A stretch of 33,772 bases of DNA from positions 1 to 33,772 of the IMG/VR virus record IMGVR_UViG_3300017716_002486; one strand, written 5' to 3'. The position numbers and the translations under genes are program-made. Source of the stretch: a virus. Its lineage: Duplodnaviria > Caudoviricetes. Below, piece by piece: positions 1,805 to 29,873 of this stretch (within the stretch, counting starts at the first letter, position 1; every line of letters starts with the position of its first letter). Below the pieces are notes generated by a model. That model was not told the DNA's origin and made no database searches. It saw only the letters and a list, made by a program, of their open reading frames with translations.

Positions 1805-3613
1805 ATGGCAGAACAAAATTTTACAGTTTGGCAAAGATTAACACAGGCCTTTGGTCCAAACTCTCTTTTAAATCAAGACTACCCAAGTGTAAAGTTTGAT
1901 AAACAAGAGTTATTAAAGACAACCTCAAAACGAGAATACGAACAAAAATTATTACAATCTCAACAGACATTTTATTTGTCTAACCAATGGGCGAAGATTG
2001 AAAATAATTTATACACTCAAGCAATTTATTATGAACCAACAAGACTTTCAGCGTTTTACGACTATGAGTCTATGGAATTCACTCCTGAAATTTCGGCAGC
2101 GTTAGACATATATGCCGAAGAATCAACAACAATTGACCAAAATGGTCATATGTTACAAATTTATTCTGAATCACATAGAATTAAATCAATCGTTGCTGAT
2201 TTGTTTAACAATGTATTAGACCTTAACACTAACTTACCTATGTGGGTAAGGAATACTTGTAAGTATGGTGATAATTTTGTTTATTTAAAATTGGACCCTG
2301 AAAAAGGTGTTATTGGATGTATGCAATTACCAGTTGTTGAAATTGAACGATTGGAGAGAGGTATGATGACTAAAAATACTTCAGCCGATACTGACCCAAC
2401 CAAGAAACATATGAAATTCACTTGGAAACACAAGGATATGGAATTCAATACTTGGGAGGTTGCTCACTTTAGATTATTAGGTGACGACAGGAGATTACCT
2501 TATGGTACATCTATGTTGGAAAAAGCTCGTCGTATTTGGAAGCAATTATTATTATCAGAAGATGCGATGTTAATCTACAGAACCTCAAGAGCACCTGAAA
2601 GACGTGTGTTTAAAGTGTTTGTGGGTAATATGGACGATAAAGATGTTGAAGCGTATGTCCAAAGAGTTGCCAATAAATTTAAAAGAGACCAAGTTGTTGA
2701 CCATAAAACAGGTAACGTTGATATGAGATTTAATCAAATGGCTGTTGACCAAGATTATTTCATTCCTGTACGTGACCCGGCTCAAGCATCACCAATTGAA
2801 ACTTTACCAGGAGCTCAAAATTTATCAGAAATTGCGGATATTGAATATATCCAAAAGAAATTATTGACCGCATTACGTGTACCTAAAGCTTTCTTGGGAT
2901 TTGAAGAAGTTGTTGGTGACGGTAAAAACTTAGCATTACAAGATATTCGTTTTGCAAGAACTATTAACAGAATTCAAAAGAGTATGTTGCAAGAACTTAA
3001 TAAGATTGCAATTATTCACTTGTTTATGTTAGGGTTTGAAGATGAATTATCAAACTTTAGATTATCTTTAACTAACCCATCAAAACAAGCTGACTTGTTG
3101 ATGGTTGATATTTGGAAAGAAAAAATCCTTTTATATAAAGATATGGTTATTGACCCAGGAACAGGTATTTCTGCGGTTTCACAATCGTGGGCTAAGAAAC
3201 ACATATTAGGATTCTCTGATGAAGAAATTAAATTAGATATCCAACAACAAAGAATTGAAAGAGCGGTTGGTGAGGAACTCAAGAAAACCGCTGAGGTTAT
3301 CGTTAAGACAGGTTTATTTGACACTTTGGATAAGTTATATGGTAAGAAGGAAGGAGAACCTGCAGGAACACCTTCTGAAGGTGGAGAGACACCTCCTGAT
3401 TTGGGAGGAATTGGAGGAGCGCCAGGAGGTTCAACACCACCACCTCCACCTGAAGCCGGAGCTCCGTCACCTGTACCTGAAAATTTAAATAGAGATAAGA
3501 AAAACCTTATATTAGAAAGTACTCTTAAGGATGATTATGATTTTGTAGATTTTAATAAAAATAAGGACTCTATGAAAGAAATTAACGAGACTTTGGAAAA
3601 ACTATTAAAATAA
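1805..3613 (+). CDS. Portal protein (T4 gp20-like)
   Basis: Motifs PEISAALDIYAEE, EDAMLIYRTSRAPERRVF, DYFIPVR, IETLPGAQNL, DIEYIQKKLLTALRVPK; located between terminase and protease. Confidence 0.96.
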   Translation: MAEQNFTVWQRLTQAFGPNSLLNQDYPSVKFDKQELLKTTSKREYEQKLLQSQQTFYLSNQWAKIENNLYTQAIYYEPTRLSAFYDYESMEFTPEISAALDIYAEESTTIDQNGHMLQIYSESHRIKSIVADLFNNVLDLNTNLPMWVRNTCKYGDNFVYLKLDPEKGVIGCMQLPVVEIERLERGMMTKNTSADTDPTKKHMKFTWKHKDMEFNTWEVAHFRLLGDDRRLPYGTSMLEKARRIWKQLLLSEDAMLIYRTSRAPERRVFKVFVGNMDDKDVEAYVQRVANKFKRDQVVDHKTGNVDMRFNQMAVDQDYFIPVRDPAQASPIETLPGAQNLSEIADIEYIQKKLLTALRVPKAFLGFEEVVGDGKNLALQDIRFARTINRIQKSMLQELNKIAIIHLFMLGFEDELSNFRLSLTNPSKQADLLMVDIWKEKILLYKDMVIDPGTGISAVSQSWAKKHILGFSDEEIKLDIQQQRIERAVGEELKKTAEVIVKTGLFDTLDKLYGKKEGEPAGTPSEGGETPPDLGGIGGAPGGSTPPPPPEAGAPSPVPENLNRDKKNLILESTLKDDYDFVDFNKNKDSMKEINETLEKLLK

Positions 3614-3627: not shown

Positions 3628-4347
3628 ATGAAATTCGGATACCTTAAAACAGCAATAGAAAAAAAATTAGTTAATTCATTTGTAAATGAATCATTAACTA
3701 ACGATTTAAAAACATTTAAACAATTAGTTTTAAAATCAACTCCCACTAAAAAATTATTTTTCATTTATGATAAATTAAATGAAAATTTGGGAATGGACAA
3801 AGAAAGTGCGTCTTTATTAGTTGATGAGATTATTAAAGAATCTAAAGGTATTACTATTCCTGAAAAACATTTCTTGAAATTAGCTAAATGGGTTAATAAC
3901 GACTTAAAAGTTAGTGAGTATCATAATATTGACCAAATCTTAAATACTAATCTTCAGAATATTGAAGAAACAGTTGAAAGTAAAAAATTGGTAATTGAAA
4001 ATTTAACAAAAACAAAAAAAATTGTTAAAGAAGGTATTTCTAAATTACCTTTATCTTCAGTTAGTAAAATTATGAACTCAACTGCAAATCAATATTTGAA
4101 TAAACTTGATGAATCAACAAAAAAAGAAGTATTGTCAATTTTCAAACAAGATGAGACAGTTTTAATTGAAAATTTTAAAACTGAAAAGAAAGAAGTTTTG
4201 AAAAAATTAGACGAGATGATAAATTCAAGTTCGGAAGACGAATTGAAGACAAGATTAAATGAAACAAAAGAAAGAATTAAATCAACTCAATTTAATTTTA
4301 ACGAATTTGTTAAAATTAAAGAATTAAACAAACAATTAGTCCTCTGA
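3628..4347 (+). CDS. Hypothetical helical protein, possible prohead core component
   Basis: 239-aa Lys/Glu-rich ORF directly after the portal, with several [ILV]-x-E sites (FVNES, IIKES, IVKEG, LDES). Confidence 0.7.
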   Translation: MKFGYLKTAIEKKLVNSFVNESLTNDLKTFKQLVLKSTPTKKLFFIYDKLNENLGMDKESASLLVDEIIKESKGITIPEKHFLKLAKWVNNDLKVSEYHNIDQILNTNLQNIEETVESKKLVIENLTKTKKIVKEGISKLPLSSVSKIMNSTANQYLNKLDESTKKEVLSIFKQDETVLIENFKTEKKEVLKKLDEMINSSSEDELKTRLNETKERIKSTQFNFNEFVKIKELNKQLVL

Positions 4348-4518
4348 TTTACTCTGTAGGTAAATTGCCTTTCTTTTCTGTTCTCTCTTAATATCACTTT
4401 TTTTAACAAAAGTTTTACGTTTGGTTAGTTCTTTAACCTGTTTAACTTTTATCACTTTGTTTTTAAGCTCCTTTAAAGCTTTCTCAATGTTTTGGTTGTG
4501 TACTTTTACAATTAACAT
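4336..4518 (-). CDS. rpsU: Phage-encoded 30S ribosomal protein bS21 (Bacteroidota type)
   Basis: MLIVKVHNQNIEKALKELKNKVIKVKQVKELTKRKTFVKKSDIKREQKRKAIYLQ fits the bS21 pattern (NIxxALK...K...L..R..F.K.S..R....KAxY). ATG at 4518 is preferred over TTG at 4539. Confidence 0.88.
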   Translation of the reverse strand: MLIVKVHNQNIEKALKELKNKVIKVKQVKELTKRKTFVKKSDIKREQKRKAIYLQSKSED

Positions 4519-5061: not shown

Positions 5062-5781
5062 ATGCAAAACTTTAAAATTTTAGGTCCAAATGATAGTGGT
5101 AAAGGTATTCTGATTGAAATGGACGCTGGATATGTTTCTCCAACTGAGAGTCATAATCTAACAATGATACAGGAAAGTAAAACTCAATTGGATTATTCAA
5201 AACCGTTTGAGTTTTATGCCGTATTACAAAAATACAATACTCCAAATAGAAATGGTAGAGTTTACCCTGAAAGAATCCTAAAAAGAGAGGTTGAGAACTA
5301 TAAAAAAAATTATATAGATAAGGGTGTCGCTTTATCTGAATTAAATCACCCTGAGTCATCTCTGATTGATTTAGACCGTGTATCTCATATTATCACAGAG
5401 ATGTGGTGGGATGGACATATATTACTTGGTAAATTGAAACTTCTTACTTCACCTGGTTTCCACGAAAGAGGAATTGTTTCAACTAAAGGTGACCAAGCAG
5501 CTAACTTATTAAGACAAGGGGTTACTTTAGGTATATCCTCAAGAGGTGTCGGTTCATTAACAAAAAAAGGAGAACAAAATGAAGTTCAAGATGATTTTGA
5601 GTTAATTTGTTTTGACTTGGTATCTTCACCATCTACGCCAGGAGCATACTTATTCCAAGATATTAACGACAGAGCAAAGTACGAAGAAAACTTAAAAGAA
5701 GAACAAGAACAAAAATCTGAACAATCTGCATCTAAATCGCTTGATTTAATGAAAAAACTTAACGATTATTTATCAAAATAA
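5062..5781 (+). CDS. Prohead core protease (T4 gp21-like)
   Basis: Motifs NRNGRVYP, ELNHP, LDRVSH, GISSRGVGS, FDLVSSPSTPGA; TATTTAT at 5041-5047. Confidence 0.96.
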   Translation: MQNFKILGPNDSGKGILIEMDAGYVSPTESHNLTMIQESKTQLDYSKPFEFYAVLQKYNTPNRNGRVYPERILKREVENYKKNYIDKGVALSELNHPESSLIDLDRVSHIITEMWWDGHILLGKLKLLTSPGFHERGIVSTKGDQAANLLRQGVTLGISSRGVGSLTKKGEQNEVQDDFELICFDLVSSPSTPGAYLFQDINDRAKYEENLKEEQEQKSEQSASKSLDLMKKLNDYLSK

Positions 5782-6101: not shown

Positions 6102-6119
6102 TAAGAAATGCATAAAAAA

Positions 6120-7622
6120 ATGGCAGAAAAAAACCTAGTTGAAGAAGCAGTAATCCAATTGAAAAATTTGGAAGAAGCAATCAATGAGAACGCAAAAGAA
6201 ATACTTGAGTCAACAATGAAGCAAGAAATTAGCGAGCTTGTAAAAGAGTCCTTAAATGAGGCTAATGAAGACGAAATGGAATTTGATGATTCTGAAGAAG
6301 AGTCTGAAGAGGAAATTGGGTCAGAAGATGAATCTGAAGAAGAAGAGTCTGATGAAGAAGAATATGACGAGGAAGAGTCTGATGAAGACGAATCCGAAGA
6401 AGATTTTGATTTTGAAGAAAACCCTGAAGTGATGGATTTCACGGCAATGGATAACTCTCCTGAAACTCACGATTTATTAATGACAGTTTTCAAAAAAATG
6501 AAACCTGAAGATGAGGTTGAAATCACAAAAGATGGTGATTACGTAAATCTTAAAGACGGAGACGAAGAGTACTTATTATCAGTTAACGAATCTTATGATG
6601 AAGATGACAAAGATAAGGAATTAGACTCTGAACTTGAAGAAACAATTTATGAAATTGCTATGGAGGATGAAGACGACGACAATGAAGAAGAATCGTTTTT
6701 TGACAAATTTAACCAAGACGATTTAGAAGATGCCGGTGATGAATTAGAAGAAACCATTTATGAAATCCATATGGATAGAGAAGATGAAGAATCTGATGAC
6801 GACGATGAAGAACTTCCAAGAGCACCTAAAGAAGACAGACCTGGTGGAATGTTCTTTGAAGATGATATGGACAAACTTATGTACGATGAAATGGAAGAGG
6901 AAATGCAATACCAATCAGAGGAACATATGTATGAATCTAAAAAAGGTATGAAGCCTGTTGTCGGAAAATCTGGTAAAATCGGAAGTCCTAAATTCTCTTA
7001 TAAAAAATCTGCAGGTGGTTTTAAAGAAAATATGAAAGCCGCTAATCCTACAAAAGGTACAGGTAAACCAAAATTTGAATATAAAGAATCTACTCCAAAA
7101 ATGAAGAAAGGTGAGTTTAAAGAAGCTGCTAGAACATTAGGAAATGGTTCTAATTTCAGAAAAGGTGGTCTACCAAAACCAAAGGCACACTCAAGTGCAA
7201 ATATCAATATGAAGGAGAACTACGAATTAATGGAAGAAGTTCAAATGTTGAGAGCTAAAAACGAAGAATACAGAAAAGCATTAAACCTTTTCAGAGACAA
7301 ACTTAACGAAGTTGCAGTATTCAACTCAAACTTAGCTTACACAACAAGACTTTTCACAGAACATTCAACATCTAAACAAGAGAAAATTAACATCTTGAGA
7401 AGATTTGATAGTGCTGAAACATTAAAAGAGTCTAAAAACCTTTACAAGTCAATTAAAGATGAGCTTTCATCTTTGAATAAAGGAAGTATCAATGAGTCAT
7501 TTGAAAGAGTTATTGACCACGAACCAGTAACAGGTTCTGCACAGTCACTAATTGAATCAAAAACTTATGAGAATCCTCAATTTATGAGAATGAAAGATTT
7601 AATGACTAAAATAATTAAATAA
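6120..7622 (+). CDS. Prohead scaffold/core protein (T4 gp22-like); alternative start at 6108
   Basis: Long Asp/Glu-rich low-complexity region, C-terminal coiled coil (LNEVAVFNSNLAY), many [ILVMY]-x-E sites; immediately before the MCP. Confidence 0.8.
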   Translation: MAEKNLVEEAVIQLKNLEEAINENAKEILESTMKQEISELVKESLNEANEDEMEFDDSEEESEEEIGSEDESEEEESDEEEYDEEESDEDESEEDFDFEENPEVMDFTAMDNSPETHDLLMTVFKKMKPEDEVEITKDGDYVNLKDGDEEYLLSVNESYDEDDKDKELDSELEETIYEIAMEDEDDDNEEESFFDKFNQDDLEDAGDELEETIYEIHMDREDEESDDDDEELPRAPKEDRPGGMFFEDDMDKLMYDEMEEEMQYQSEEHMYESKKGMKPVVGKSGKIGSPKFSYKKSAGGFKENMKAANPTKGTGKPKFEYKESTPKMKKGEFKEAARTLGNGSNFRKGGLPKPKAHSSANINMKENYELMEEVQMLRAKNEEYRKALNLFRDKLNEVAVFNSNLAYTTRLFTEHSTSKQEKINILRRFDSAETLKESKNLYKSIKDELSSLNKGSINESFERVIDHEPVTGSAQSLIESKTYENPQFMRMKDLMTKIIK

Positions 7623-7657: not shown

Positions 7658-9505
7658 ATGGGAGCATTATTAGAATCAGGTCTTGTTGGTAACATCGGTC
7701 TTAAGCACCTTAAAGTTATCAAAGAAGATACTATCAACAAATGGGACAAATTAGGGTTCCTTGAAGGTCTTAGAGGCCACCTAAAAGAAAACGTAGCTCA
7801 ATTATATGAGAACCAAGCATCTCAATTGATTAACGAAGCATCTTCAGACGCATCTTCAGGTTCGTTTGAAACAGTTGTATTCCCAATCATCAGACGTGTA
7901 TTCTCTAAATTGTTAGCGAACGATATCGTATCAGTACAAGCAATGAACTTACCAATTGGTAAATTGTTCTTCTTTGTACCTAAAATCCAAGGATATAACG
8001 GAGGTACCGCTAACCAATCAGGTGAGCACTACGCACCAATCGGTTCTCCTGGAAACTATCCTGGTGACCCTAACACAGGTTACACTACAGGTAACGGTAC
8101 TTACAACCCAACTTACGCTAAAAACCTTTATGATTTATTCTACGAAGGTGGCGAAGCAGGTTTAGACCCTCCTGGATTGTTTGACTATTCTAAAGGACAA
8201 TGGAGTGCTATCACAGCATCTACACAAGTTCAAACTTGGACAAACGGTAATTTAGTTGATATTGGAATCATCACAGGTGCTACAGGTACTGAGTATCGTA
8301 GAGTAATCCTTAAGATGACAGGTTTTGTTAGCGCAGGACAAGGTAAATTAATTTCACCAGATGGTTCTGAATTGGATACTGAAACATTCTTGTCAGATTT
8401 AAGAATCTTACCTCTTGTAAACGCAACGGGTGGATTATCAGCTTCTACAGCATGTGCAACTTTAACTAACTTAACTACACCATTATTGTTCAGAGTTGTT
8501 ACTCAACAATACGGTAAAGGTATTGTTAGCTATGGTAGTAACGTAACTACAAGCTGGCCGTCTAACGGAGGTGGAACTTATCCTGATGTTTGTACTGCGA
8601 ATGGTGTTATCTACTTAGAAGTTGATTTACAGTGTCCAGTATGTGTAGGTTGTTCTCAAGCTACTCCTGATGGATATTCAGGTACAACTTTATTCTCAGG
8701 TCAATCAGGTTCATCTTTTATAGCGGTATTTAGACGTTACAAAGAGTTAGAATTTGAAGATAAGATTGGTGAAGTTTCTTTCGACCTTCAGTCTGTAACA
8801 GTTTCTGTTACTGAAAGAAAGTTAAGAGCTCAGTGGTCTCCTGAATTAGCTCAAGACGTTGCGGCTTTCCACAACATTGACGCTGAAGCTGAATTAACAG
8901 CATTATTGTCTGAACAAGTTGCAGCTGAAATTGACCGTGAAATCTTAAGAGATTTACGTAAAGGTGCTGCATGGAACTTACGTTGGGACTACAACGGATG
9001 GAGAAGAATCTCTTCTACTACATCTTACACTCAGAAAGACTGGAACCAAACTTTGATTACAGCTATCAACCAATTATCTGCACAAATTCACAAGTCAACA
9101 CTTCGTGGAGGAGCTAACTGGATTGTTGTATCTTCTGAAGTTTCTGCTATCTTTGATGACTTAGAGTACTTCCACGTATCTAACGCATCTCCTGAGCAAG
9201 ACCAATACAATATGGGTATTGAAAGAGTTGGTACTTTAGCAGGTCGTTACCAAGTATACCGTGACCCTTACTTCCCAGCTAACCAAGTGTTAGTAGGACA
9301 CAAAGGAACGTCATTGTTAGATACTGGTTACATCTACGCTCCATACGTACCACTTCAATTAACTCCAACAATGTATAACCCGTTCAACTTTACTCCAATC
9401 AAGGGTATTATGACGAGATACGCGAAGAAGATGGTAAATAACAGGTTCTACGGAAGAATTACTGTTGATGGTGTTCGTACATTTGACTTACAAGAGCTTA
9501 GATAA
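7658..9505 (+). CDS. Major capsid protein (T4 gp23-like)
   Basis: Motifs FPIIRRVF, IVSVQAMNLPIG, RKLRAQWSPELAQD, DAEAELTALLSEQVAAEIDREI, GYIYAPYVPL, FTPIKGIMTRYA. Confidence 0.97.
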   Translation: MGALLESGLVGNIGLKHLKVIKEDTINKWDKLGFLEGLRGHLKENVAQLYENQASQLINEASSDASSGSFETVVFPIIRRVFSKLLANDIVSVQAMNLPIGKLFFFVPKIQGYNGGTANQSGEHYAPIGSPGNYPGDPNTGYTTGNGTYNPTYAKNLYDLFYEGGEAGLDPPGLFDYSKGQWSAITASTQVQTWTNGNLVDIGIITGATGTEYRRVILKMTGFVSAGQGKLISPDGSELDTETFLSDLRILPLVNATGGLSASTACATLTNLTTPLLFRVVTQQYGKGIVSYGSNVTTSWPSNGGGTYPDVCTANGVIYLEVDLQCPVCVGCSQATPDGYSGTTLFSGQSGSSFIAVFRRYKELEFEDKIGEVSFDLQSVTVSVTERKLRAQWSPELAQDVAAFHNIDAEAELTALLSEQVAAEIDREILRDLRKGAAWNLRWDYNGWRRISSTTSYTQKDWNQTLITAINQLSAQIHKSTLRGGANWIVVSSEVSAIFDDLEYFHVSNASPEQDQYNMGIERVGTLAGRYQVYRDPYFPANQVLVGHKGTSLLDTGYIYAPYVPLQLTPTMYNPFNFTPIKGIMTRYAKKMVNNRFYGRITVDGVRTFDLQELR

Positions 9506-9607: not shown

Positions 9608-10294
9608 ATGAAAAAAATAGAATTAACAGAATTACAAGTTAACGAAATTATAAAACTTTATACTGAAGATTTATTGGGTTCTCCCACTATTAGTGAAAAA
9701 TTAAAAATACATAAAACTATTGTTCTAAACACATTAAGAGATAATGGTATTGTTCTTGGGTCATCAGGTAGACGAAATATTGGTGGTAGAGAAGTCGCTA
9801 TGAAAAAATATGAGTCAAAACCTCAAACAAAAGAACGTAAAAGAAAAAATTACGATAAATGGTATGAACAAAATAAAGAACATCGTAAAGAATATCTAAA
9901 AGAATATAGAGAAAAAAATATAGATAAAATTCGTGAGGTTAAAAGAACTTACGAAAAAACTCGTAAACATACTGACCCCATTTATAAATTAATCAATAAT
10001 TTTCGTACTGCGGTATATCAGGTATTGAAAGAAAGTAACGTTCAAAAGAACGGACATTATTTTGAAATTTTGAAATACACTCCTGATGAGTTAATTACTC
10101 ATTTAGAAGAAAAATTTACAGGTGAAATGTCGTGGGATAATTACGGGATATGGCACGTTGACCACATACGTCCAATTTCTTCATTTAACATTCAAGAGAT
10201 TGGGGATGAGTCATTTATGGAATGTTGGTCGTTAAAAAACCTCCAACCGTTATGGGGTGATGAGAATATTCGTAAATCAAATAAAACGGTGTAA
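9608..10294 (+). CDS. Free-standing HNH (homing-type) endonuclease with N-terminal HTH-like region
   Basis: C-terminal WHVDHIRP...NLQPLWGDENIRKSNK HNH motif, basic helical linker; TATTTAT at 9597-9603. Confidence 0.88.
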   Translation: MKKIELTELQVNEIIKLYTEDLLGSPTISEKLKIHKTIVLNTLRDNGIVLGSSGRRNIGGREVAMKKYESKPQTKERKRKNYDKWYEQNKEHRKEYLKEYREKNIDKIREVKRTYEKTRKHTDPIYKLINNFRTAVYQVLKESNVQKNGHYFEILKYTPDELITHLEEKFTGEMSWDNYGIWHVDHIRPISSFNIQEIGDESFMECWSLKNLQPLWGDENIRKSNKTV

Positions 10295-10316
10295 AAAAAG
10301 GGACATTGTCCCTTTT
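10295..10316. terminator. Probable bidirectional terminator between convergent genes; copy of the MCP terminator
   Basis: AAAAAGGGAC-ATT-GTCCCTTTT between the HNH stop and the convergent lysozyme-like stop. Confidence 0.7.
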
Positions 10317-10998
10317 ATACTGTTCCGTAGGTTTTTTGAGCCCATTCTCGTCTGATTCTTTTAGCTCTATCTTTATTTGATGGTCGTTCAACATTGTCTA
10401 CAATCCAATCAATCCACCACCCAATTGTGTGATTTTCATTATATCCTGAATATTTTTCTTTAATGTGATTTGACATAAAAGTTATTTGTCTATCGCAATC
10501 TTTTAATACTGACATATCCCCTCCGTACGCATCTAATAATGATATTCCTAAACCACCACATATATTAAATTGCCATAAACCAAATGAACAATACCCATCA
10601 ATTGGTTTGTATTTATTACCTCTTTTATTACTAATTCCTCTATCACCTTTAGCGTCACACTTAAACTTTGATTCTCCGTAAGCGTTGGCAACTAATGCTG
10701 CGACTAACGAGTCATTTGGAGTACTTGTAAAATATTTTTTTAATTTATTGAATAAGTCGGTACCGTCAGTGTTTGTTGTGCCGGTTACTCTAAAGTCAGT
10801 TTTATCTTCACCGTTAGAGCTTTCTCCTCCATCAGAACCTTCTCCATCTGCACCTTCTCCATCATCATTGGAGTTATTATATTTGCCCATTCTTTTTTTA
10901 ACTCTATCAAACAATAATTTTATAAAATCATCGGTTTGGGGTTCTGTTTCTTGTTCTACTAATCTTTTAAGTTGAGATTCTGTAATTTTTAATTTCAT
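10315..10998 (-). CDS. Phage tail-lysozyme-like (Phage_lysozyme2) peptidoglycan hydrolase with N-terminal leader
   Basis: AALVANAYGES (catalytic Glu), SFGLWQF, C-terminal VERP...R; leader MKLKITESQLKRLVEQE and a Gly/Asp/Glu linker; TATTTAT on the minus strand at 11003-11009. Confidence 0.72.
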   Translation of the reverse strand: MKLKITESQLKRLVEQETEPQTDDFIKLLFDRVKKRMGKYNNSNDDGEGADGEGSDGGESSNGEDKTDFRVTGTTNTDGTDLFNKLKKYFTSTPNDSLVAALVANAYGESKFKCDAKGDRGISNKRGNKYKPIDGYCSFGLWQFNICGGLGISLLDAYGGDMSVLKDCDRQITFMSNHIKEKYSGYNENHTIGWWIDWIVDNVERPSNKDRAKRIRREWAQKTYGTV

Positions 10999-11000
10999 AA

Positions 11001-11237
11001 TTATAAATATCTAATAAGTATGGAAATAAATTCAGATTCTGGTAGAGTGTATATATTCTTACTGTAGGAATGCTCAAGGATTCTAATTATGATTTCTTTT
11101 TTGTCTTCTTCTGTTAAGTTCTGAATTGTTAATAAGAAGTCATCTTCGTTACTATATTGAATTTTACCAAAGATTGTTTTATTTGACATTACTTTGTTTA
11201 ATTGTTCAACTATTTTATCTGTGTTAGAATTATCCAT
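11001..11237 (-). CDS. Hypothetical protein
   Basis: 78-aa ORF abutting the lysozyme-like gene. Confidence 0.65.
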   Translation of the reverse strand: MDNSNTDKIVEQLNKVMSNKTIFGKIQYSNEDDFLLTIQNLTEEDKKEIIIRILEHSYSKNIYTLPESEFISILIRYL

Positions 11238-11274
11238 TTTGGTGATATTTATTTAATATAGTATAACTTAAAGA

Positions 11275-12204
11275 ATGAAAGAATCAAGTTTAATAAAATC
11301 CATAAGAAAGGTCATTAAAGAGACGGATTCCAGTTCATCTGCTGGGGCGTTTAATGTTCCGTTTAGAACAGGGTTGAGATTATGGGATAAAAAAACAATT
11401 GCTCCTTATACTGAACCTTTAGATGGTTATAATAATGCGGAACTTTATGTTGACGCGTTAGACGGTAACATAGATACTAAAAACGTTAAAGACGTTGAAA
11501 ATAAATCACTTAGGTCGTCAAAATTTTATAAGAATCATCCAACTGATAGTGATGAAGATGGAAGTAATTTAAATGATAATCCTTTTAATAAAAAATTACT
11601 TAAAAAAGTTTTTGGACAGAAAAAAATAAAAGAAGCTACTGACACTACTTTAAGTTCTGGTGAATACACGGGACCAATTGAAATAGGTTTAAAAAAATGG
11701 AGAAAACAAGAATTAGGACCGTTTAGTGAATTTTCAAAGAGTTTTGTTAATAAAAAAATAAAACAAAAAACTTTAAAGAATAATAAAAAAAGAAATGTTG
11801 GTGTTTGGGAGAAACATCCTGAAAGTGGATATGAAATACCGACTCACGATGTTCACACAATTAATGAAGACTTGGGGGTGTGGTTTGGTACTAAAAAGAA
11901 ACCTAAAGGAAGTAAACAACCTAAAGGACCTTGGGTTAATATATGTAAGAAAGTTGATGGTAAACATCCTCCTTGTGGTAGACCTGAAGCGAGTGATAAA
12001 TCTTATCCTAAATGTAGAGCTACGGGAGTTGCCAGTAAAATGACAGATTCACAAAAGAAATCGGCTTGTCAACAAAAAAGAAATGCCGAAAAAACACATT
12101 CTAAAACAGGTACGGGTAATAAACCAAAAATGGTTAGTTACAAACCTAGAAAGAAAACTAACGAATCAGTTTTAATTAAACAAATTATTAAATCTTTGAA
12201 ATGA
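11275..12204 (+). CDS. Modular hypothetical protein: duplicated module plus Cys/Lys-rich DUF5872-like C-terminal domain
   Basis: Internal repeat (IKE..D....G....P...GL..W.K....P..E twice), then LGVWF...WVNI...PCGR...YPKCR; TATTTAT at 11246-11252. Confidence 0.7.
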   Translation: MKESSLIKSIRKVIKETDSSSSAGAFNVPFRTGLRLWDKKTIAPYTEPLDGYNNAELYVDALDGNIDTKNVKDVENKSLRSSKFYKNHPTDSDEDGSNLNDNPFNKKLLKKVFGQKKIKEATDTTLSSGEYTGPIEIGLKKWRKQELGPFSEFSKSFVNKKIKQKTLKNNKKRNVGVWEKHPESGYEIPTHDVHTINEDLGVWFGTKKKPKGSKQPKGPWVNICKKVDGKHPPCGRPEASDKSYPKCRATGVASKMTDSQKKSACQQKRNAEKTHSKTGTGNKPKMVSYKPRKKTNESVLIKQIIKSLK

Positions 12205-12593
12205 AAGTTTGTATAAAATATAGTAAAAAACTTTTTAAGGACAAACAAATAAAAATCATTAAAGATTTTGTAAAATTATTAAACAAAATAATGCCATTAT
12301 CTGAAGAAATAAATTTGTTTTTTTTAGATAAGAGAGTTGGTAAAATGACAACGGGTTCTTATAAAGATGACATACATACAATAAAAGTTTTAGTTAAAAA
12401 TAGAATAATGTCTGATATATTAAGGACATTGTCCCACGAATGGGGACATGCCTTTGATAATGAACATATTAATTTTAAAGATAGAAGAGATGTTGGAGGG
12501 GACTCTGAAAATTTTGCAAATTCTATTTCAGGTGCAATAACCAAACATTACATTAAGAAACATCCTGAATTAGAAGATACTATTTTTGAGTAA
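12201..12593 (+). CDS. Small zincin-like metallopeptidase (HExxH)
   Basis: ILRTLSHEWGH plus downstream E-N-F-A-N, an ImmA/IrrE-like motif arrangement. Confidence 0.7.
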   Translation: MKVCIKYSKKLFKDKQIKIIKDFVKLLNKIMPLSEEINLFFLDKRVGKMTTGSYKDDIHTIKVLVKNRIMSDILRTLSHEWGHAFDNEHINFKDRRDVGGDSENFANSISGAITKHYIKKHPELEDTIFE

Positions 12594-13002
12594 TCAATTC
12601 AGTTGAAATTTTGGTGTAAATGGTATCCAAAGAATGTCTAATCTGATATTCCATTTCTTTCTCCATTTGCATGGCTCTTAATTCCATTTCGTTTTTGAAG
12701 AAATCTTTAAGTTTATTCCATTCGGTATCACTTAATTTAATGAAATAACTATATGTGTGGTTTGTGATTGTAACTTCACCGTCCTCCATTGTGATAAAAA
12801 TACCTAACTGTTCATTTTTAATGTATTTTTTTCTTGAAATTGGGGCAATTAACAAGTCAGAATTTTGACTATGGATTAACTTACGACAAATGAATGTACA
12901 TTGTTTAATGTTTGTTCTGGCCTCTTGTCGTTCAACAAATGATTTATTTGAAATGTCTCGTAATGAAATTTTGAATTTCGCGTAAAGTCTTTTAATTGTC
13001 AT
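12580..13002 (-). CDS. Hypothetical protein
   Basis: 140-aa ORF with its own host-type promoter. Confidence 0.7.
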   Translation of the reverse strand: MTIKRLYAKFKISLRDISNKSFVERQEARTNIKQCTFICRKLIHSQNSDLLIAPISRKKYIKNEQLGIFITMEDGEVTITNHTYSYFIKLSDTEWNKLKDFFKNEMELRAMQMEKEMEYQIRHSLDTIYTKISTELITQK

Positions 13003-13023
13003 TGTAGTTTTTATTTATTTCTA

Positions 13024-13054
13024 CAAATATACAACAAAAGTTTTAATTTAACAA
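13024..13054 (-). promoter_or_regulatory. Bacteroidota-type primary sigma promoter TTG-N20-TATATTTG
   Basis: The minus strand reads TTG (13054-13052), 20 nt, TATATTTG (13031-13024), an exact TAnnTTTG -7 element, 21 nt before ATG 13002. Confidence 0.7.
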
Positions 13055-13068
13055 TAAATTTAAAAATT

Positions 13069-13572
13069 TTAACAATATGCTCCTGAACAGTGTTTTTTTC
13101 CGTCTAAACCTTTTATTTTACCTTTACATACTTGTACAGCGTGTCCATTACTATAAGCTGAGGGGTACACTTTATATTTCGCCTTTGCTGACGCTTTTCC
13201 TCTTGCACATAATTTTGTACCCGCTTTTTTACGTCCTTCATTCATTTGGTATAACGATAATGCTTCACCAGGATTTTTTGCAGTCATTGCTAAGTCTTTA
13301 AGGATATTGTCGTCCTCCATAACTTCTTCAGATTTCCACATATCACCACTTTCAGTTTCGTTCATTAAAAAATCAAATACTTGGTCTATATTGTTTTTTG
13401 CTTCGGCAATATGGTCTTGAGCCCAATCGTGACCGTCATCTAGTATTGATTCAATTTCAGATTTATCAAAATCTAATAATAAACCTATTTGTCTGTGCAT
13501 TTGTTCTAAATTACTGAAGAACATATATCTTTGAGTTTCCTCTTTTAGAATTTTTTTAATTAATTTGTCCAT
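13069..13572 (-). CDS. Modular hypothetical protein with C-terminal YPSAY Cys/Lys-rich domain
   Basis: Leader MDKLIKKILKEE, acidic helical domain (DWAQDHIAEAK), then MNE|GRKK...AKAKYKVYPSAYSNG...C. Confidence 0.7.
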   Translation of the reverse strand: MDKLIKKILKEETQRYMFFSNLEQMHRQIGLLLDFDKSEIESILDDGHDWAQDHIAEAKNNIDQVFDFLMNETESGDMWKSEEVMEDDNILKDLAMTAKNPGEALSLYQMNEGRKKAGTKLCARGKASAKAKYKVYPSAYSNGHAVQVCKGKIKGLDGKKHCSGAYC

Positions 13573-13576
13573 AATA

Positions 13577-14083
13577 TTACGATTTTAAATCTGTTTTTAA
13601 GTCATTACATACTATTGAAAGAAATGTGCTAATTTCTCGTTCAAGTCCTTCATATTTTTCAAATACATTTTCACCTTCAGTACTTTCAAAATTACACAAT
13701 GAATAAGTACCTTCAGTATCACAATAAATTTCACCATAAAACTCATCGTTATTAACATTTAAATATCCTGAATGTAATATTTCATCAACATTCTCTTCGG
13801 TTGATTCGTATTTAAATTCCATTGATGGTATCCCTTCCATTTCATTAAATACCCAAGTTTCTCCTTGGTCTGCGACAGATTTTGTTGTGGTTAATTCCTC
13901 ATCATCCAAAAACTCATTGTTCATTGAGTAATGGTCCAAATACTTTTTCTCTTTATCAGATAAAGAATCCATTCCTGATTTATTAATTTTATCTAAAATT
14001 TGGTCAATTTCCCCTATTCCTTCATTCAGTAGGTTGTCAACAACAAATTTTAATTGTGATTCTGTTAATCTAATTTTTTTCAT
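13577..14083 (-). CDS. Hypothetical protein with leader and DUF6576-like motif
   Basis: MKKIRLTESQLK...LLNE then IDQILDKINKSGMDSLSDKEKKYL. Confidence 0.7.
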   Translation of the reverse strand: MKKIRLTESQLKFVVDNLLNEGIGEIDQILDKINKSGMDSLSDKEKKYLDHYSMNNEFLDDEELTTTKSVADQGETWVFNEMEGIPSMEFKYESTEENVDEILHSGYLNVNNDEFYGEIYCDTEGTYSLCNFESTEGENVFEKYEGLEREISTFLSIVCNDLKTDLKS

Positions 14084-15567: not shown

Positions 15568-15590
15568 TATTTATGGTTTATAAATAAATA

Positions 15591-19674: not shown

Positions 19675-20421
19675 TCAATCCTCAATTGTCTTAATTAAGT
19701 TCTCATATAATATTTTATACTTTTTCATACTTGTTCTAATTTCTTTTGTTGAAAGATTAGTCATTTCTCGGAGTGAAAGGAGTATTAAATTTTTATTAAA
19801 TTTATTATTATCTGACGTTTGGAATATTAACTTATAGTTTTCCAAAATATCACATAATGCTAAACCTAGTTTGTGTTCATTAGAGGACTCATCAAAATCT
19901 GAAAGTTTACTTTTAACAACACCAAGTAAATCCATTAAAACATTTTTATTTTCGTCTTCTTCGTCTTCTAAATAATAAACCATTGAAGGGTTATTCTCTA
20001 AATCTGATGAAATGTCTTCATACGATATTTTACGGTTAGTTTCTTTTTGGTCTTTAAGAATCTGTCCCATTAAATAATTTTTACAGATTGTTCCAAAATA
20101 TGAATAAGCTTTCTTTTCTTTAGAAGGACTAAATTTTTCAATTTTAGTCATTAAAAAAGAATGAGTATCAGTATGAATTTCATTAAAATTCATATCTTTA
20201 CGATATAGTTTATATCTTCTAATAATAGAAGATATCATTTTGTCTAATGGATGTCTTAAATAGTCATTATAAATTTTATTCCTTTCATCGTAAGTGGAAG
20301 CAGTTAAGAACCTCCTAACCGCCAATTCTTCTCTTTGGTCAAAATAGTTTTCGCCAGGAGCTTTAACTTTTTTACCCGTCTGAATAACTATTTCTGTAGT
20401 ACCTGAATAATCATTATTCAT
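19675..20421 (-). CDS. Putative phage sigma factor (sigma70 region-2 / T4 gp55-like)
   Basis: ERNKIY...LDKMISSIIRRY...FLMTKIEKFSPSKEKKAYSYFGTICKNYL parallels sigma regions 2.1-2.4 (LxxAIEKFDPxKxxxFSTYAxxxIRN). Confidence 0.6.
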   Translation of the reverse strand: MNNDYSGTTEIVIQTGKKVKAPGENYFDQREELAVRRFLTASTYDERNKIYNDYLRHPLDKMISSIIRRYKLYRKDMNFNEIHTDTHSFLMTKIEKFSPSKEKKAYSYFGTICKNYLMGQILKDQKETNRKISYEDISSDLENNPSMVYYLEDEEDENKNVLMDLLGVVKSKLSDFDESSNEHKLGLALCDILENYKLIFQTSDNNKFNKNLILLSLREMTNLSTKEIRTSMKKYKILYENLIKTIED

Positions 20422-21227
20422 TAAACTGTTTCAGGTTCGTATTTTATGTTACGGTCTTCAACAAAGAAATATTCTTTCTTAGCTGAATTAATCCAAAACT
20501 TAACCTCATCTTCAGAAAGTGTTGTATCACCGTTTTTATAATTCCAAAAAATAGAACCTTGTCTTAAGTTAATATGTTTGTAACCTAATCTTGGAATTGA
20601 CATAATTTTAACTGAATTATAAGTTAATCTCAAAAATAACTCATATACAAACGTTAATTTTATTGATGGTTTAAACCCTCCAAAATCAACAAACGTATCT
20701 TTTTTAATTACCATACCTGATGTTTGGAAATTTTGATATGTATGTAAAGTTTCGTTGGTTAAATAACCCATTTCTTGACTGAAGTTAGCGGCAAATGTTG
20801 CTTCATTAGTAAATCCTGCAAATAATCCCTTGTCATCAATGTCTACTACAATTGGTAGGAAACAATCAACATCTGTGTAAACTTCAGAATATTTTTTAGC
20901 GTTTTTAAACCAAATTTTTGAGTATTCATCATCAAATTCTAAAATAGTTACCCATTTTGTTTTAGATTCCGCAACACCTAAATTAACTTGGTCACAGAAA
21001 TTGGGTTCTAAATCCCATTCAATCATTCTTACATTTAAATCTCCAAAATCAAACGATTTTAAAAATTCAATAAGACTAATTTCCGATGTGTGAATAATTA
21101 TTACTTCAGAAGGTTTAACTTCTTGGTTTTTAATTGACTGAATTGATTTTTCAAGAAAATCGTCAAAAAAAGGTACTACCGCAGATTTAATTGGTAGTAC
21201 AATTGTTAAATCAAAATTATTTTCCAT
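20421..21227 (-). CDS. Glycosyltransferase family 2 (GT-A fold)
   Basis: LTIVLP, SIQSIKNQ, EVIII, NLGVAESKTKWVTILEFDD, FGGF. Confidence 0.85.
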   Translation of the reverse strand: MENNFDLTIVLPIKSAVVPFFDDFLEKSIQSIKNQEVKPSEVIIIHTSEISLIEFLKSFDFGDLNVRMIEWDLEPNFCDQVNLGVAESKTKWVTILEFDDEYSKIWFKNAKKYSEVYTDVDCFLPIVVDIDDKGLFAGFTNEATFAANFSQEMGYLTNETLHTYQNFQTSGMVIKKDTFVDFGGFKPSIKLTFVYELFLRLTYNSVKIMSIPRLGYKHINLRQGSIFWNYKNGDTTLSEDEVKFWINSAKKEYFFVEDRNIKYEPETV

Positions 21228-22287
21228 AATGTTCTTCTATTTTAAATTTATTTAATTGTTGTGAAAAAGTATCAACTCTAAAAGTTAAATAAGATGTGAA
21301 TAAATCAACTACAGAAGTATTAAATTTCTCCAAATTTTGATATTTGGATGACGTATTTAAACCATCTTCGTATAATTTTTCAGAAATATTGTCTTCAACC
21401 CAATTTTGAATATAATCAGCAATCATATCAATTAATTTGTCACCATCTTTAGTCCAAATGCCGTTATTTTCATCCATCCAAGTTGGTTTAATATCTGGTA
21501 CTAACCCAACTACAGGACAATTAGATGCCATAGATTCAAGAGGAAATGTACCAAATGAACTTTGAGTGTCCATCCATACTGATAAACAAGACTCTTTTAA
21601 TGTATTTGAAAATTCTTCTTCAGTTTGAGAACGCATATCTTTAAATGTTATCCATCTAAATTGAGGGTATTTTAAATAAAACTTTTTAATTAAATTAATA
21701 CCATCTCTTTGTTCTCTTGAATGTACAGCAATTATTGGTTTTGCAGGATACTTTGAAACTGAAAACTTATCTGAAATTACAGGTTCAATAATATCATAAG
21801 ATACACCTTTCATAATTGGTGACACATAACCTTTTAACCATTCACTTGTAATAATTGATTTAGTGAATCCTAAAGTTGACCAACTTTGACCTGGTGATAA
21901 TGTTTCGGTAACCCAATCTCCTGATTGACATAATACAATTTTACCACAAGGTAAATTACTAACTTGAGGCATCATATAACCAAAAATATCAGGTACAATA
22001 ATAAAATCTTCAGGAGAAATTTGTAATTGTTGTCCTTCAATTGGGTTATGAGGTAATTCCATATATTCACTACCTAACCATTCCCCAACACCTGTATAAT
22101 CTTTTTGTTCGTGTAGGATAATTGAATTAAAACCGGCATTTTTTAAAGAAAGAGCCATTCGGTAAATGTATGAGACAGATGCCTTAGCATTACCTTTTGT
22201 GTCTTGTATAAAAAAATACAGTCTTGATTTTTTTTCTTTTAAGTTGTTAATTGATATTGACAACTTTTCAAAATTATTTTGTTCCAT
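21217..22287 (-). CDS. Glycosyltransferase, GT-B fold (GT4-like)
   Basis: C-terminal SSFGTFPLESMASNCPVVG donor-binding motif; DFIIVPD. Confidence 0.8.
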   Translation of the reverse strand: MEQNNFEKLSISINNLKEKKSRLYFFIQDTKGNAKASVSYIYRMALSLKNAGFNSIILHEQKDYTGVGEWLGSEYMELPHNPIEGQQLQISPEDFIIVPDIFGYMMPQVSNLPCGKIVLCQSGDWVTETLSPGQSWSTLGFTKSIITSEWLKGYVSPIMKGVSYDIIEPVISDKFSVSKYPAKPIIAVHSREQRDGINLIKKFYLKYPQFRWITFKDMRSQTEEEFSNTLKESCLSVWMDTQSSFGTFPLESMASNCPVVGLVPDIKPTWMDENNGIWTKDGDKLIDMIADYIQNWVEDNISEKLYEDGLNTSSKYQNLEKFNTSVVDLFTSYLTFRVDTFSQQLNKFKIEEHYGK

Positions 22288-22308
22288 TCTTATATAATTT
22301 ATTTTTTA

Positions 22309-22575
22309 TTAATATTTTTTTAAAACTCCGTTGTTTAATAATGTATTAAACGCTAATTTATAAGGAAGACTTACTGCAGTTTTTGGGCCTAAAGCTTCAT
22401 CAGCATCTTCACGTTCAGTAATTAAAACTTCAATCATTGTTTTTATCATTTCATATTTTACAACAGAAATGTGTTGTTCGGTTTTACCCGATTCATCGGT
22501 GGTTGGGGCTAAATTAACTTGGTCTTCTATTTCAGAAATGTCAAGATAATAGTGTTCGTTAAATAAGGTCAACAT
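22309..22575 (-). CDS. Hypothetical protein
   Basis: 88-aa ORF overlapping the upstream gene end. Confidence 0.7.
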   Translation of the reverse strand: MLTLFNEHYYLDISEIEDQVNLAPTTDESGKTEQHISVVKYEMIKTMIEVLITEREDADEALGPKTAVSLPYKLAFNTLLNNGVLKKY

Positions 22576-23227
22576 GCTTAATTTCCTCTATTTTGTTTAT
22601 TAGTTCTTTTAGTGTTACTATTTCGCTATTACACATTGTTCCCTCATTATATGTTGTTACATATTTTATACATTTTTCAGGATATAATTTAATTAAATCA
22701 GGATTCGCAGTAACAATTACATCATAGTCAGAAAGTTTATTTTGTAAATTGTTGTTATTGTAAAAAATAACCGAATCAATTACACACCCAAATTTTGAAA
22801 TGAAAAATAATGATGCAGGTTTTGATTTACTAAATTCTTTTGAAAAAATTGAAAATTCATATTTCCCTTTTGTTGATTCAATTATGTCATTTAAAACCAC
22901 AAATGAATTTAATTCCGTTGAAGGGGAATGTCCAAAAATTTGCATTGCAAAATCTTCATAAAGAAAATCATAAAAATCATCCTCATTTTGAAATTTAAAG
23001 TGTTCTATTAAATTTAAACTTGTTACAGGAAGGTCCATTTCATATTTAAAAGATTCTGACTGTTCATCTAATTCTGTATTTCCTGACATATCTAATGTAT
23101 ACGTCTTTATCCCATCACTATAGTCTTCAGAATATGCCTCAATGTAGTTCTTTTCATAAACTTGAGAAATCTTTAAGTTAATGTCCCTTAAAACTCCATT
23201 TAAATCAATGCCAATTTTATTTGTCAT
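22559..23227 (-). CDS. HAD-superfamily 5'(3')-deoxynucleotidase-like protein (degenerate motif)
   Basis: N-terminal KIGIDLNGVLRD resembles NT5C-type IxIDxDGVLxD. Confidence 0.6.
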   Translation of the reverse strand: MTNKIGIDLNGVLRDINLKISQVYEKNYIEAYSEDYSDGIKTYTLDMSGNTELDEQSESFKYEMDLPVTSLNLIEHFKFQNEDDFYDFLYEDFAMQIFGHSPSTELNSFVVLNDIIESTKGKYEFSIFSKEFSKSKPASLFFISKFGCVIDSVIFYNNNNLQNKLSDYDVIVTANPDLIKLYPEKCIKYVTTYNEGTMCNSEIVTLKELINKIEEIKHVDLI

Positions 23228-23954
23228 ATCTTTTTAAGATTTTTGAAATTAATGGATTTCTTACAATATCTTCATCACCAAATTTGTGAATTCCAATATC
23301 CGGAACATCTTTAAACTTTTCAATTGCATCAAACAAACCCGAATGTTCTTTATTTTTATATCTATCAGTTTGTTCAATATCACCTGAAATGAAAAATTTA
23401 CTATTAAACCCAATACGAGTTAAAAGTAATTTCATTTGTCCTGGTGATGAGTTTTGGGCCTCCTCAAAAATTAATATTGAGTTATCAATGTTCATACCTC
23501 TCATATATGCAAGAGCAAACACCTCAATTACCTCAATAGATTTTAATTTTTCCCTAATTTCTTTACCAATAATTTTATTTAAAAGGTAATAAGATGGGAA
23601 AATATACGGGTCCAATTTTTCTTCCAAATTGCCTGGCAATGAGCCTAATTTTTCTTCAGCTTCAACCGCAGGTCTTACAATGATAATTTTCTCATATGGT
23701 GTTCTTGAATCTTGTAATAAGTCTACCGCACATTTCATTGCAATATAACTTTTACCGACCCCCGCAGGTCCTGAACAAATTGTAATTTGATTTTCGGTTA
23801 ATTTATCGTAATATTCTTCTTGACCTTTAGATAAAAATTTATTTTTAGTTTTACTTTTTATGATTTGACCAATTTGTTCTTTTTTGCTAATTTTTGGTTT
23901 TGCCTCTGTTTGAAAAGTTTGAGGTTCTTTTATTGGTGGTTTTTTTCTAGTCAT
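23217..23954 (-). CDS. phoH: PhoH family ATPase
   Basis: GPAGVGKS Walker A, RPAVEAEEKLGSLPG, LAYMRG, EEAQN, LLTRIG, GDIEQTD, DIVRNPLI. Confidence 0.96.
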   Translation of the reverse strand: MTRKKPPIKEPQTFQTEAKPKISKKEQIGQIIKSKTKNKFLSKGQEEYYDKLTENQITICSGPAGVGKSYIAMKCAVDLLQDSRTPYEKIIIVRPAVEAEEKLGSLPGNLEEKLDPYIFPSYYLLNKIIGKEIREKLKSIEVIEVFALAYMRGMNIDNSILIFEEAQNSSPGQMKLLLTRIGFNSKFFISGDIEQTDRYKNKEHSGLFDAIEKFKDVPDIGIHKFGDEDIVRNPLISKILKRYDK

Positions 23955-23961
23955 TATTTAA

Positions 23962-24963
23962 TTAATATTTTTTATCTAAAATCATTTTACTGATTCTTAT
24001 TTGTTCATCCCAATGTTCAATCATTTCGTCCATTAACATTTCAAATGTATAATCAGGTTTCCATCCTAAAGTAGTTCTAATTTTTGTAGAATCACCTTTA
24101 AGGTATTTTAACTCTTCAGGTCTCAAGTATTTTGCGTCCTGAACAACATATTCAGTATAGTCTAAATTTAATTTTTTGAAAACATACTCAATCATCTCTT
24201 TAACCGAATGTGTAACCATTGTTGATACTACAAAATCTTCAGGGGTGTCGTGATTTAAAATAGCATGCATTGCTCTCACATAATCTTTAGAATGTCCCCA
24301 ATCTCGGTAAGAATCCATATTACCAATTTCTAACTTATCTTTTAATCCGTATTTAATTTCAACCGCAGTTTTAACTACTTTATTAGTTACAAAATTAGAA
24401 CCTCTTCTTGGTGATTCGTGATTAAATAAAATACCATTAACTGCGTGTAAATTATATGCTCTTCTATAATTTCTAACTAACGAATAGGCTAAAAGTTTAG
24501 AACATCCATATGGACTAACTGGATTCATCGGAGTAGTTTCTCTTTGGAATCCATCGTCATCAACGGAATTACCAAACATTTCAGATGAAGACGCTTGATA
24601 AAATTTAGCGTTTGGGCAACTTCTTTTATAAGCTTCTAAAATATTTAAAGTTCCCATACCATTTGTTTCCAAAGTAAATTCAGGTATGTCAAAACTAATT
24701 CTAACGTGTGATTGTGCCGCTAAATTGTAAATCTCATCTGGTTGTATTTTATCTAACAACTTTTGTAAACTACTTTGGTCTAACAAATCACCATAATAAG
24801 AATGAATTTTACTTTTAATACTATCCATTCTTGTTTGTTGATGTTCAGGTGTTGAATTTCTTCTAACAATTCCGTGAACTTCATATCCTAACTCTAAAAG
24901 ATATTCCGCCAAATAACTTCCGTCTTGTCCGGAGATTCCGGTTATAAATGCTTTTTTACTCAT
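23962..24963 (-). CDS. gmd: GDP-mannose 4,6-dehydratase (copy 1)
   Basis: ITGISGQDGSYLAE, YNLAAQSHV, YQASSSEMFG, SPYGCSK, NGILFNHESPRRG, RDWGH. Confidence 0.96.
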   Translation of the reverse strand: MSKKAFITGISGQDGSYLAEYLLELGYEVHGIVRRNSTPEHQQTRMDSIKSKIHSYYGDLLDQSSLQKLLDKIQPDEIYNLAAQSHVRISFDIPEFTLETNGMGTLNILEAYKRSCPNAKFYQASSSEMFGNSVDDDGFQRETTPMNPVSPYGCSKLLAYSLVRNYRRAYNLHAVNGILFNHESPRRGSNFVTNKVVKTAVEIKYGLKDKLEIGNMDSYRDWGHSKDYVRAMHAILNHDTPEDFVVSTMVTHSVKEMIEYVFKKLNLDYTEYVVQDAKYLRPEELKYLKGDSTKIRTTLGWKPDYTFEMLMDEMIEHWDEQIRISKMILDKKY

Positions 24964-26362: not shown

Positions 26363-26873
26363 TATTTTTTAATTTTTTTGCATTTTTTATTATTTTACTA
26401 CCGTCAATTTTTTTCACTAAAACTGCCGGATTACCTTTATATACTCCCCACTCTTCTGTATCTCCCATAAGTAAACTTCCTGCAGATAATAGAACGCCCT
26501 TTCTTAATCTTGACCCTGGCATTACTATAGAATTAGTACCGATATTTGAGAATTCCTCCATAATAATTGGAGATATGATTTGTTTTCCTTTTAGTTCTTT
26601 AGGTATTAAACACCCAAAAAGTCCACTACCGTCAAATCTATCCGAACCGCATATCAGTCTGGCACCTGACATAATATTATTAAATCCTTTACATTCAAAA
26701 TAACCGTCCTCTCCACCAATTATTGTAACATATGGTGAGATATGGGTATAATCACCAATTTTACAATTTACTGTTGAATATACTCCTTTATCTATTGCAA
26801 TATTTTTACCTAATTTTAATTCTCTTTTAAATTCAGAATCAGGATGAATATAAACGTTATTGTCTGTTATCAT
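26352..26873 (-). CDS. Hexapeptide-repeat (LbH) acyltransferase
   Basis: KIGDYTHISPYVTI, IGTNSIVMPG, WGVYKGNPAVLVK. Confidence 0.88.
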   Translation of the reverse strand: MITDNNVYIHPDSEFKRELKLGKNIAIDKGVYSTVNCKIGDYTHISPYVTIIGGEDGYFECKGFNNIMSGARLICGSDRFDGSGLFGCLIPKELKGKQIISPIIMEEFSNIGTNSIVMPGSRLRKGVLLSAGSLLMGDTEEWGVYKGNPAVLVKKIDGSKIIKNAKKLKNNEM

Positions 26874-27282: not shown

Positions 27283-27286
27283 TTTA

Positions 27287-28096: not shown

Positions 28097-28097
28097 A

Positions 28098-29872: not shown

Positions 29873-29873
29873 A

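Follow-up and report, generated by a model that had tools for sequence, protein, structure and literature searches.

The DNA analysed here, positions 1 to 33,772 of the virus record IMGVR_UViG_3300017716_002486 (referred to at its full length of 33,772 nucleotides as the window), covers the head region of a jumbo myophage of the bS21-encoding type, with genes like gp20, gp21 and gp23, and the subject of this work is a short basic peptide, the leader, with which several otherwise unrelated proteins encoded there begin. Genes were called mechanically as open reading frames (ORFs) of at least 60 residues starting with ATG, so that individual ORF starts may be wrong, and ORFs are named by their start positions. 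The original prediction, made from the sequence of the window, had singled out four similar basic N-termini, in ORFs 10998, 11275, 13572 and 14083, as well as a leader-like tail at the C-terminus of ORF 11275, and all of these are present. The leaders and the proteins that carry them are as follows.

10315..10998, minus strand: leader-bearing lysozyme-like protein, ORF 10998 (Phage_lysozyme2 at residues 97-224, PF18013 E 1.3e-7)
10954..10998, minus strand: leader of ORF 10998, residues 1-15, first-half form (profile A, 20.8 bits)
11275..12204, plus strand: ORF 11275, predicted polyprotein, with a short leader at residues 1-16 and, following E16 and again following E120, a copy of the same module
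11275..11322, plus strand: leader of ORF 11275, residues 1-16, short form (profile B, 12.5 bits)
13069..13572, minus strand: ORF 13572, predicted two-module precursor, with a short leader at residues 1-11, a helical module, and a basic Cys-containing module after E112
13540..13572, minus strand: leader of ORF 13572, residues 1-11, short form (profile B, 23.5 bits)
13577..14083, minus strand: ORF 14083, with DUF6576 at residues 25-54 (PF20216 E 3.6e-12) and a beta-rich body
14021..14083, minus strand: leader of ORF 14083, residues 1-21, long form ending at E21 (profile A, 28.6 bits)

The leader takes a long form, MKK..RLTESDL.RIVKRVI.E, and a short form, IKKILKE. Three of the four leaders fit the pattern Φ-x-x-Φ-Φ-x-E (where Φ is hydrophobic), which is fuller than the [ILV]-x-E ending named in the original prediction; the leader of ORF 10998 consists of the first half only, and the L-V-E with which it ends is out of that register. 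The long-form leader of ORF 14083 is basic and predicted to be amphipathic, extended at residues 1-7 and helical at residues 8-21, and in a model of the whole protein it stands apart from the folded body, with a predicted local distance difference test score (pLDDT) of 42-50 in the leader and ~90 at residues 71-160. The fold of this protein has no match in the PDB, and its matches in BFVD are only uncultured DUF6576 proteins.

Relatives were drawn from 80 IMG/VR loci retrieved by means of the major capsid protein (MCP), and those analysed were G001 (321 kilobases, kb), G002 (296 kb), G003 (229 kb, 76% complete) and G005 (a 99-kb fragment). Two leader profiles trained solely on the N-termini of G001 and G002, whose cut-offs of 8.3/7.1 bits let through 0.2% of 7,559 decoys, recover all four window ORFs at the scores listed above, and they also accept ORFs 9608, 11001 and 27287 (3/42). 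In the relatives the profiles accept 46/342 ORFs of G001, 52/357 of G002, 22/226 of G003 and 3/86 of G005, and these profile matches miss some leader-like classes and include a few false ones (9608 and a SLOG protein); judged by them, at least one ORF in ten of these phages carries the tag. The payloads fall into 41, 39 and 21 families in G001, G002 and G003 respectively. The claim of the original prediction that leader genes gather behind the MCP gene is true only locally, since 30 of the 46 leader genes of G001 lie at 180-240 kb and its MCP gene lies at 303 kb. Patterns written after viewing G001 and G002 match the first half of the leader in 28/342 and 33/357 ORFs, respectively (shuffle mean 1.0), and the second half in 11 and 17 ORFs (shuffle means 0.3-0.4); in the held-out G003 the two patterns match 14 and 9 of 226 ORFs, where shuffling gives 0.6 and 0.2, and in G005 only 1 and 0 of 86. 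Leader carriers are common to G001 and G002 less often than other ORFs are (10/44 versus 119/247).

Two groups of leaders deserve separate mention. One is a third leader class (..E.I.RI..LM..), similar by eye to the last helix of the probable head scaffold, at G001 199953 and 234048, G002 97101, and G003 5040 and 19452. The other is the first-half leader on expanded families of paralogues of ~100-150 residues without a Pfam match, comprising 13 ORFs in G002 (for example L115:14757-18671) and 5 in G001 (L093:14185-17208).

Viral contigs were also scanned blindly for DNA encoding only R-L-T-E-S-D-[LF], and this gave at least 128 distinct matches, 126/128 of them no more than 8 residues from a Met. 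A Glu stands at motif position 17 in 113/127, and most of the 14 matches that lack it have a longer form closing in a similar site. Identity is 0.90 at the position-17 Glu and falls to 0.33 at the next position and to 0.24 or less thereafter. Numbered back from this Glu, the 113 leaders are hydrophobic at E-6 in 112 cases, at E-3 in 103 and at E-2 in all 113, compared with none at E-5 and one at E-4, and in leaders picked without requiring the last Glu it is present in 27/28. The proteins that follow are diverse, 122 sequences falling into 96 families. A database profile search gave 3,502 leader matches among 8,000 candidates scored; of the best 120 of these, 96 hold 2-3 leader copies with unrelated domains between them, multi-copy proteins topping the ranking because their scores add up. 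Matches to the leader in the PDB were helices of ribosomal eL34, judged to be due to chance, and included no phage chain; NCBIfam has no family for the leader, and an Atlas search with it reached a top score of 0.84, under the useful range.

These results bear on whether the peptides could have arisen by convergence, the genome being AT-rich and therefore prone to starts full of Lys, and helix-start motifs being generic. The endonuclease ORF 9608, which scores on profile A and one of whose relatives starts nearly like the leader, speaks for this, but convergence does not account for a roughly 30-fold excess over shuffled and internal controls, for the occurrence of nearly the same 22-residue peptide on 96 payload families that are unrelated, or for the fact that the longer leader pattern, held by 73/134 scan loci, has a single match in 185,579 cellular genomes, itself on a phage-like 3-kb contig nearly identical to genes of G002. 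Convergence is therefore very improbable as a general account; where the long and short forms are concerned it can largely be discarded, and it is possible for single cases that have the first half only. ORF 9608 itself was rejected as a leader carrier, because its relatives do not keep the motif, the T-E being lost. This Endonuclease VII/HNH-like gene (window 9608-10294, plus strand) directly follows the MCP gene, holds the same place in many relatives, and has a leader-like first helix.

The leader also moves as a unit. In orthologues of ORF 13572 the same body is preceded by either the long or the short leader, so that both kinds are forms of one element, and among 37 homologues of the lysozyme-like protein found by their bodies alone, 29 exceed the leader threshold. 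The original prediction had noted TATTTAT directly upstream of two leader ORFs, and this was confirmed. The elements in the window, whose function is inferred from sequence, are these.

11003..11009, minus strand: TATTTAT 11 nt upstream of ORF 10998, probably an element of a late promoter
11246..11252, plus strand: TATTTAT 29 nt upstream of ORF 11275, probably an element of a late promoter
15584..15590, minus strand: TATTTAT before the 15567 gene (-23), likely serving the co-oriented ORFs 14083 and 13572

ORFs 14083 and 13572 have no TATTTAT of their own and follow the 15567 gene, and since the three ORFs abut, they probably share a transcript. TATTTAT peaks at 11-12 and 18-24 nt before starts, and the leader is linked to it, being carried by 72/257 genes with the element versus 48/668 without; in G001 it precedes 22/46 leader genes versus 7/63 annotated non-virion genes (p 2.4e-5), a promoter role being predicted. 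The element is nevertheless found without the leader before terminase, portal, sheath, tube and baseplate genes, including 5/7 tail/neck genes of G001, and it is thus not specific to cargo but likely a late-promoter element marking structural genes generally. The batches of 63 non-virion and 7 tail/neck genes exclude leader proteins by construction. A conserved ORF at window 19675-20421 (minus strand), with a weak sigma-70 family match (E 0.0036) below the cut-off, is a candidate late sigma factor for TATTTAT. RNA libraries contain near-exact contig pieces over the scaffold and MCP genes and parts of 11275, 13572 and 14083, with none listed for 10998; such contigs cannot show level, timing or start of transcription, and DNA carry-over is possible.

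If the leader were no more than the translated end of a cassette that combines promoter and start, which recombination has spread and which is kept for strong late expression, the peptide itself would be functionless. The enrichment of TATTTAT on leader genes would then be expected, as would a single G002 family with 13 paralogues and the use of identical codons at shared residues above codon-usage expectation (0.65 versus 0.48 in G002, 0.58 versus 0.51 in G003), although codons in G001 are saturated (0.43 versus 0.45). The distance from promoter to start is not constant, however, ranging from 11 to 50 nt, conservation extends to residue 21 and stops at a fixed Glu, and leader copies inside proteins or at their C-termini cannot aid initiation, which argues against a mere expression cassette; we regard this explanation as improbable. 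The codon likeness in G002 and G003 does indicate that copying at the DNA level happens, and capture of the cassette may be how the tag spreads. Values of pN/pS (the ratio of nonsynonymous to synonymous polymorphism) of 0.35-0.54 for leaders were set aside as circular, because the leaders had been chosen by peptide pattern, and the codon test was used instead.

The internal copies are clearest in ORF 11275, in which the two copies of the first module are followed, past E198, by a module that is basic and contains Cys and, past E297, by a leader-like C-terminal helix; many of its orthologues end in a leader helix, two of them in the full long form. Among ORF 11275 and its relatives, 42/42 copies of module 1 begin 4-11 residues after [ILVM]-x-E (background 13%), and 30/30 DLxVWFG modules lie directly after an [ILVM/F]-x-E site (background ~2%); these are counts of related, not independent, sequences, and the sequence upstream of the modules varies. 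In relatives of ORF 13572 the second module directly follows a Glu in 22/23. This module is 63-66% identical to stand-alone podovirus proteins. In P-SCSP2 and HTVC027P, homologues of the basic modules of 11275 and 13572 are separate small genes that precede the capsid gene and have no leader; by eye, gene 22 of P-SCSP2 starts at the residue matching E198 of ORF 11275, and gene 19 starts 6 residues past E112 of ORF 13572. Tiny, very basic genes in fact run in series upstream of the capsid gene in both phages (L286:3998-4976 and L285:4391-5846), two of them homologous to the 13572/11275 modules, and they may represent basic peptides of the head interior that occur widely. A suspected homology between ORF 13572 and an Immutovirus polyprotein was not detected.

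The window encodes an enzyme that could act at such sites, together with the head proteins among which it would do so.

4336-4518, minus strand: phage ribosomal protein bS21 (PF01165), inside the head module
5062..5781, plus strand: prohead protease of the T4 gp21 family (S77), the predicted processing enzyme (PF03420 E 1.6e-25)
6108..7622, plus strand: probable head scaffold, acidic, between protease and MCP, with several [ILVM]-x-E sites
7658..9505, plus strand: MCP of the gp23 family (PF07068), with a predicted maturation site at L-I-N-E60|A

The gp21/S77 protease thus occurs together with a gp20/gp23-type head. It is 38% identical to T4 gp21 over 138 residues, and its H96 and S159, which we take from T4 gp21 to be catalytic, are invariant in 45 homologues. 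The LINEA site of the MCP is kept in 24/24 distinct variants, and its counterpart in T4 gp23 is F-L-T-E65|A, a match made by eye, BLAST having left the N-terminal part unaligned; T4 gp23 loses 65 residues (PMC9958956). The scaffold, a protein without a family match, has a C-terminal domain conserved in 58 homologues and closes with L-I-E and, after it, a conserved tail. The leader is likewise linked to genomes with this protease: S77 is encoded in 6/6 near-complete leader-bearing genomes (12/17 records overall), and those six have 7-14 long leaders. Portal, protease and scaffold each end in [ILV]-x-E plus a short amphipathic tail (window 3509-3613, 5690-5781 and 7550-7622), like T4 gp21 and gp22. 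The T4 portal is reported to be unprocessed, and the conserved [ILV]-x-E site in the window portal is a difference from it.

Several independent sequence tests support that part of the original prediction which saw a portable tag with a gp21-type end on unrelated, probably late proteins, extended here to a genome-wide distribution and to internal and C-terminal positions. The explanation that best fits is that the leader is a head-loading propeptide cut by the gp21-like protease, to which we assign a probability of about 0.7. On the model of T4, the tag would dock otherwise unrelated late proteins into the assembling head, its basic amphipathic helix binding the scaffolding core; at maturation the prohead protease would cut after the last Glu of the leader, precursors such as 11275 and 13572 would yield small basic modules, and the released proteins would stay in the head. 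Some might then be ejected into the host, a weaker step for which T4 IPI and Alt offer a plausible analogy (PMC9958956) and to which we give somewhat less than an even chance.

The T4 precedent is probably close in function. T4 gp21 cuts after L/I-x-E, and in the capsid-targeting sequence (CTS) of IPIII residues 4 and 7 direct targeting and residues 8 and 10 processing (PMC9026906); the CTS of IPII and IPIII, and also those of IPI, Alt and the gp24 propeptide, are removed by gp21 (PMC9026906, PMC9958956, PMC3012670, PMC5694885), and Alt provides a precedent for C-terminal processing (PMC9026906). Both phages have a T4-type portal, an S77 protease and gp23 together with a short, conserved basic N-terminal peptide on divergent payloads, and the propeptides of IPII, IPIII and gp24 share with the leader the L/I-x-E end and hydrophobic residues at E-6, E-3 and E-2. 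The T4 N-termini inspected share only this spacing; the leader likely works like the T4 CTS and is not homologous to it. It also differs in being 11-22 residues long, the long form adding a strand and a T-E cap, in having interchangeable forms and internal tandem copies that make polyproteins, and in the number of its carriers (at least 46-52 per genome versus about four). The tag principle is known from T4. Head proteins of phiKZ-like phages are also cut after Glu (8 of ~50 in SPN3US, 19 in 201phi2-1; PMC5694885, PMC9026906), and in this group (SPN3US, phiKZ, 201phi2-1) the diverged paralogues gp53 and gp54 have identical N-termini and propeptides hold several sites. Their motif is A/S-x-E, however, and their propeptides often exceed 100 residues, whereas in the window phage the head module is of the T4 type and one short, shared leader sits on unrelated families.

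A leader of this kind could instead be a docking tag for some other target, such as a phage-encoded Clp-type ATPase, chaperones, nucleic acid or the membrane, whether or not the prohead protease also cuts it outside the head. Genes for a ClpB-like ATPase and for Hsp70 are indeed present in G001, the basic leader is predicted to be amphipathic, and many recognizable payloads bind the cell wall (PG_binding_1, OmpA, LysM, lysozyme). Docking elsewhere leaves three things unexplained, namely the end of conservation at a Glu that fits the T4 register, the position of module borders and podovirus gene starts at such sites, and the retention of the same site in the MCP, and we consider it unlikely.

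Other observations weigh against head loading and processing. The L/I-x-E motif carries little information, counts of related sequences are not independent, the full Φ-x-x-Φ-Φ-x-E occurs within 28 residues in only 27/46 leader proteins of G001, and ORF 10998, as described, departs from its register. First-half-only leaders rest on I-T-E, an ordinary helix-start pattern, and false candidates score well, with 18.3 bits for endonuclease 9608 and a score above threshold for one SLOG protein whose gene lacks TATTTAT. On the leader profiles the scaffold, protease, portal and MCP all fall below the thresholds, and 46-52 cargo genes is far above the three internal proteins plus Alt of T4. Payload roles are mostly unassigned, because 103/120 leader proteins (and 89/96 scan representatives, some of them partial) have no Pfam match, and those that are recognizable often have cell-wall-binding domains that could act outside the head. 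No cultured phage with the long leader was found: the nearest cultured MCPs, those of Immutovirus and Mel-JY01, are just 41-43% identical, and these phages have leader-like starts by eye, with only 2/49 Immutovirus ORFs above the profile thresholds. No virion proteomics, cleavage or localization data on leader proteins were found in the literature, and no account of the leader was found in the open literature, including the matches listed by a motif-string search, a survey that did not cover subscription papers and supplements.

The recognizable payloads include PG_binding_1, OmpA, LysM, PAP2, LRR, SET, DUF6576 and a nucleoside deoxyribosyltransferase-family domain. Replication, tail and baseplate Pfam families are found in 0/46 leader proteins of G001, apart from one weak DHH match, and the annotated tail and replication genes of that genome fall in the non-leader set. 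A wider version of the head-loading explanation, which we hold only tentatively, is a genome-wide cargo system in which an address captured with a late promoter would load at least 50 fast-turnover proteins and leader-punctuated polyproteins, the protease then freeing them as a kit for injection that comprises enzymes of the cell wall, small basic proteins and factors against host defence, among them a protein of the SAM lyase family. If this were true, the tag would be a sequence marker of injected proteins among ORFans. Head loading in itself would give a likely location for 10-15% of the ORFs in a common lake phage group, most of them without a family match, and would so narrow the search for proteins that are injected or counter host defence to a few candidates. 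The selection of proteins into the T4-type head core is described as an unresolved question in PMC9958956, and the thousands of natural tag variants (the 3,502 matches) provide conserved positions to compare against a receptor.

The SAM lyase-family gene (PF23780; G001 216460, L094:12460-13074, plus strand) has TATTTAT at -24 and a leader-like start ending in V-L-N-E that was missed by the profiles, and its relative in L280 has another leader before the same body; from these features the G001 protein is a candidate packaged anti-restriction protein. A truncation of the SAM lyase Svi3-3 was dropped as a possible natural leader, being due to a fragment-library construct (PMC7877911). Other products of G001 are a Thoeris inhibitor of the Tad6 family and several proteins that end in a type IX secretion domain (L095:10444-11256; L094:10559-11698; L095:8422-10248), none of which carries the leader.

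The placement of the window among the bS21-encoding phages of fresh water, whose predicted hosts are Bacteroidetes (PMC9723584), rests on gene order: bS21 lies on the reverse strand amid the terminase, portal, protease and MCP genes, and the published order of terminase, portal, reverse-strand bS21, prohead protease and MCP matches the window. The size of the relatives (296-321 kb) is a further likeness. In the main text of that paper the words "motif" and "promoter" are absent, and both passages containing "N-terminal" are about bS21. Beyond the head module, window 20421-33757 (minus strand) is by eye a long run of sugar-nucleotide and glycosyltransferase genes, of which the first, the sole one scanned, is Glycos_transf_2.

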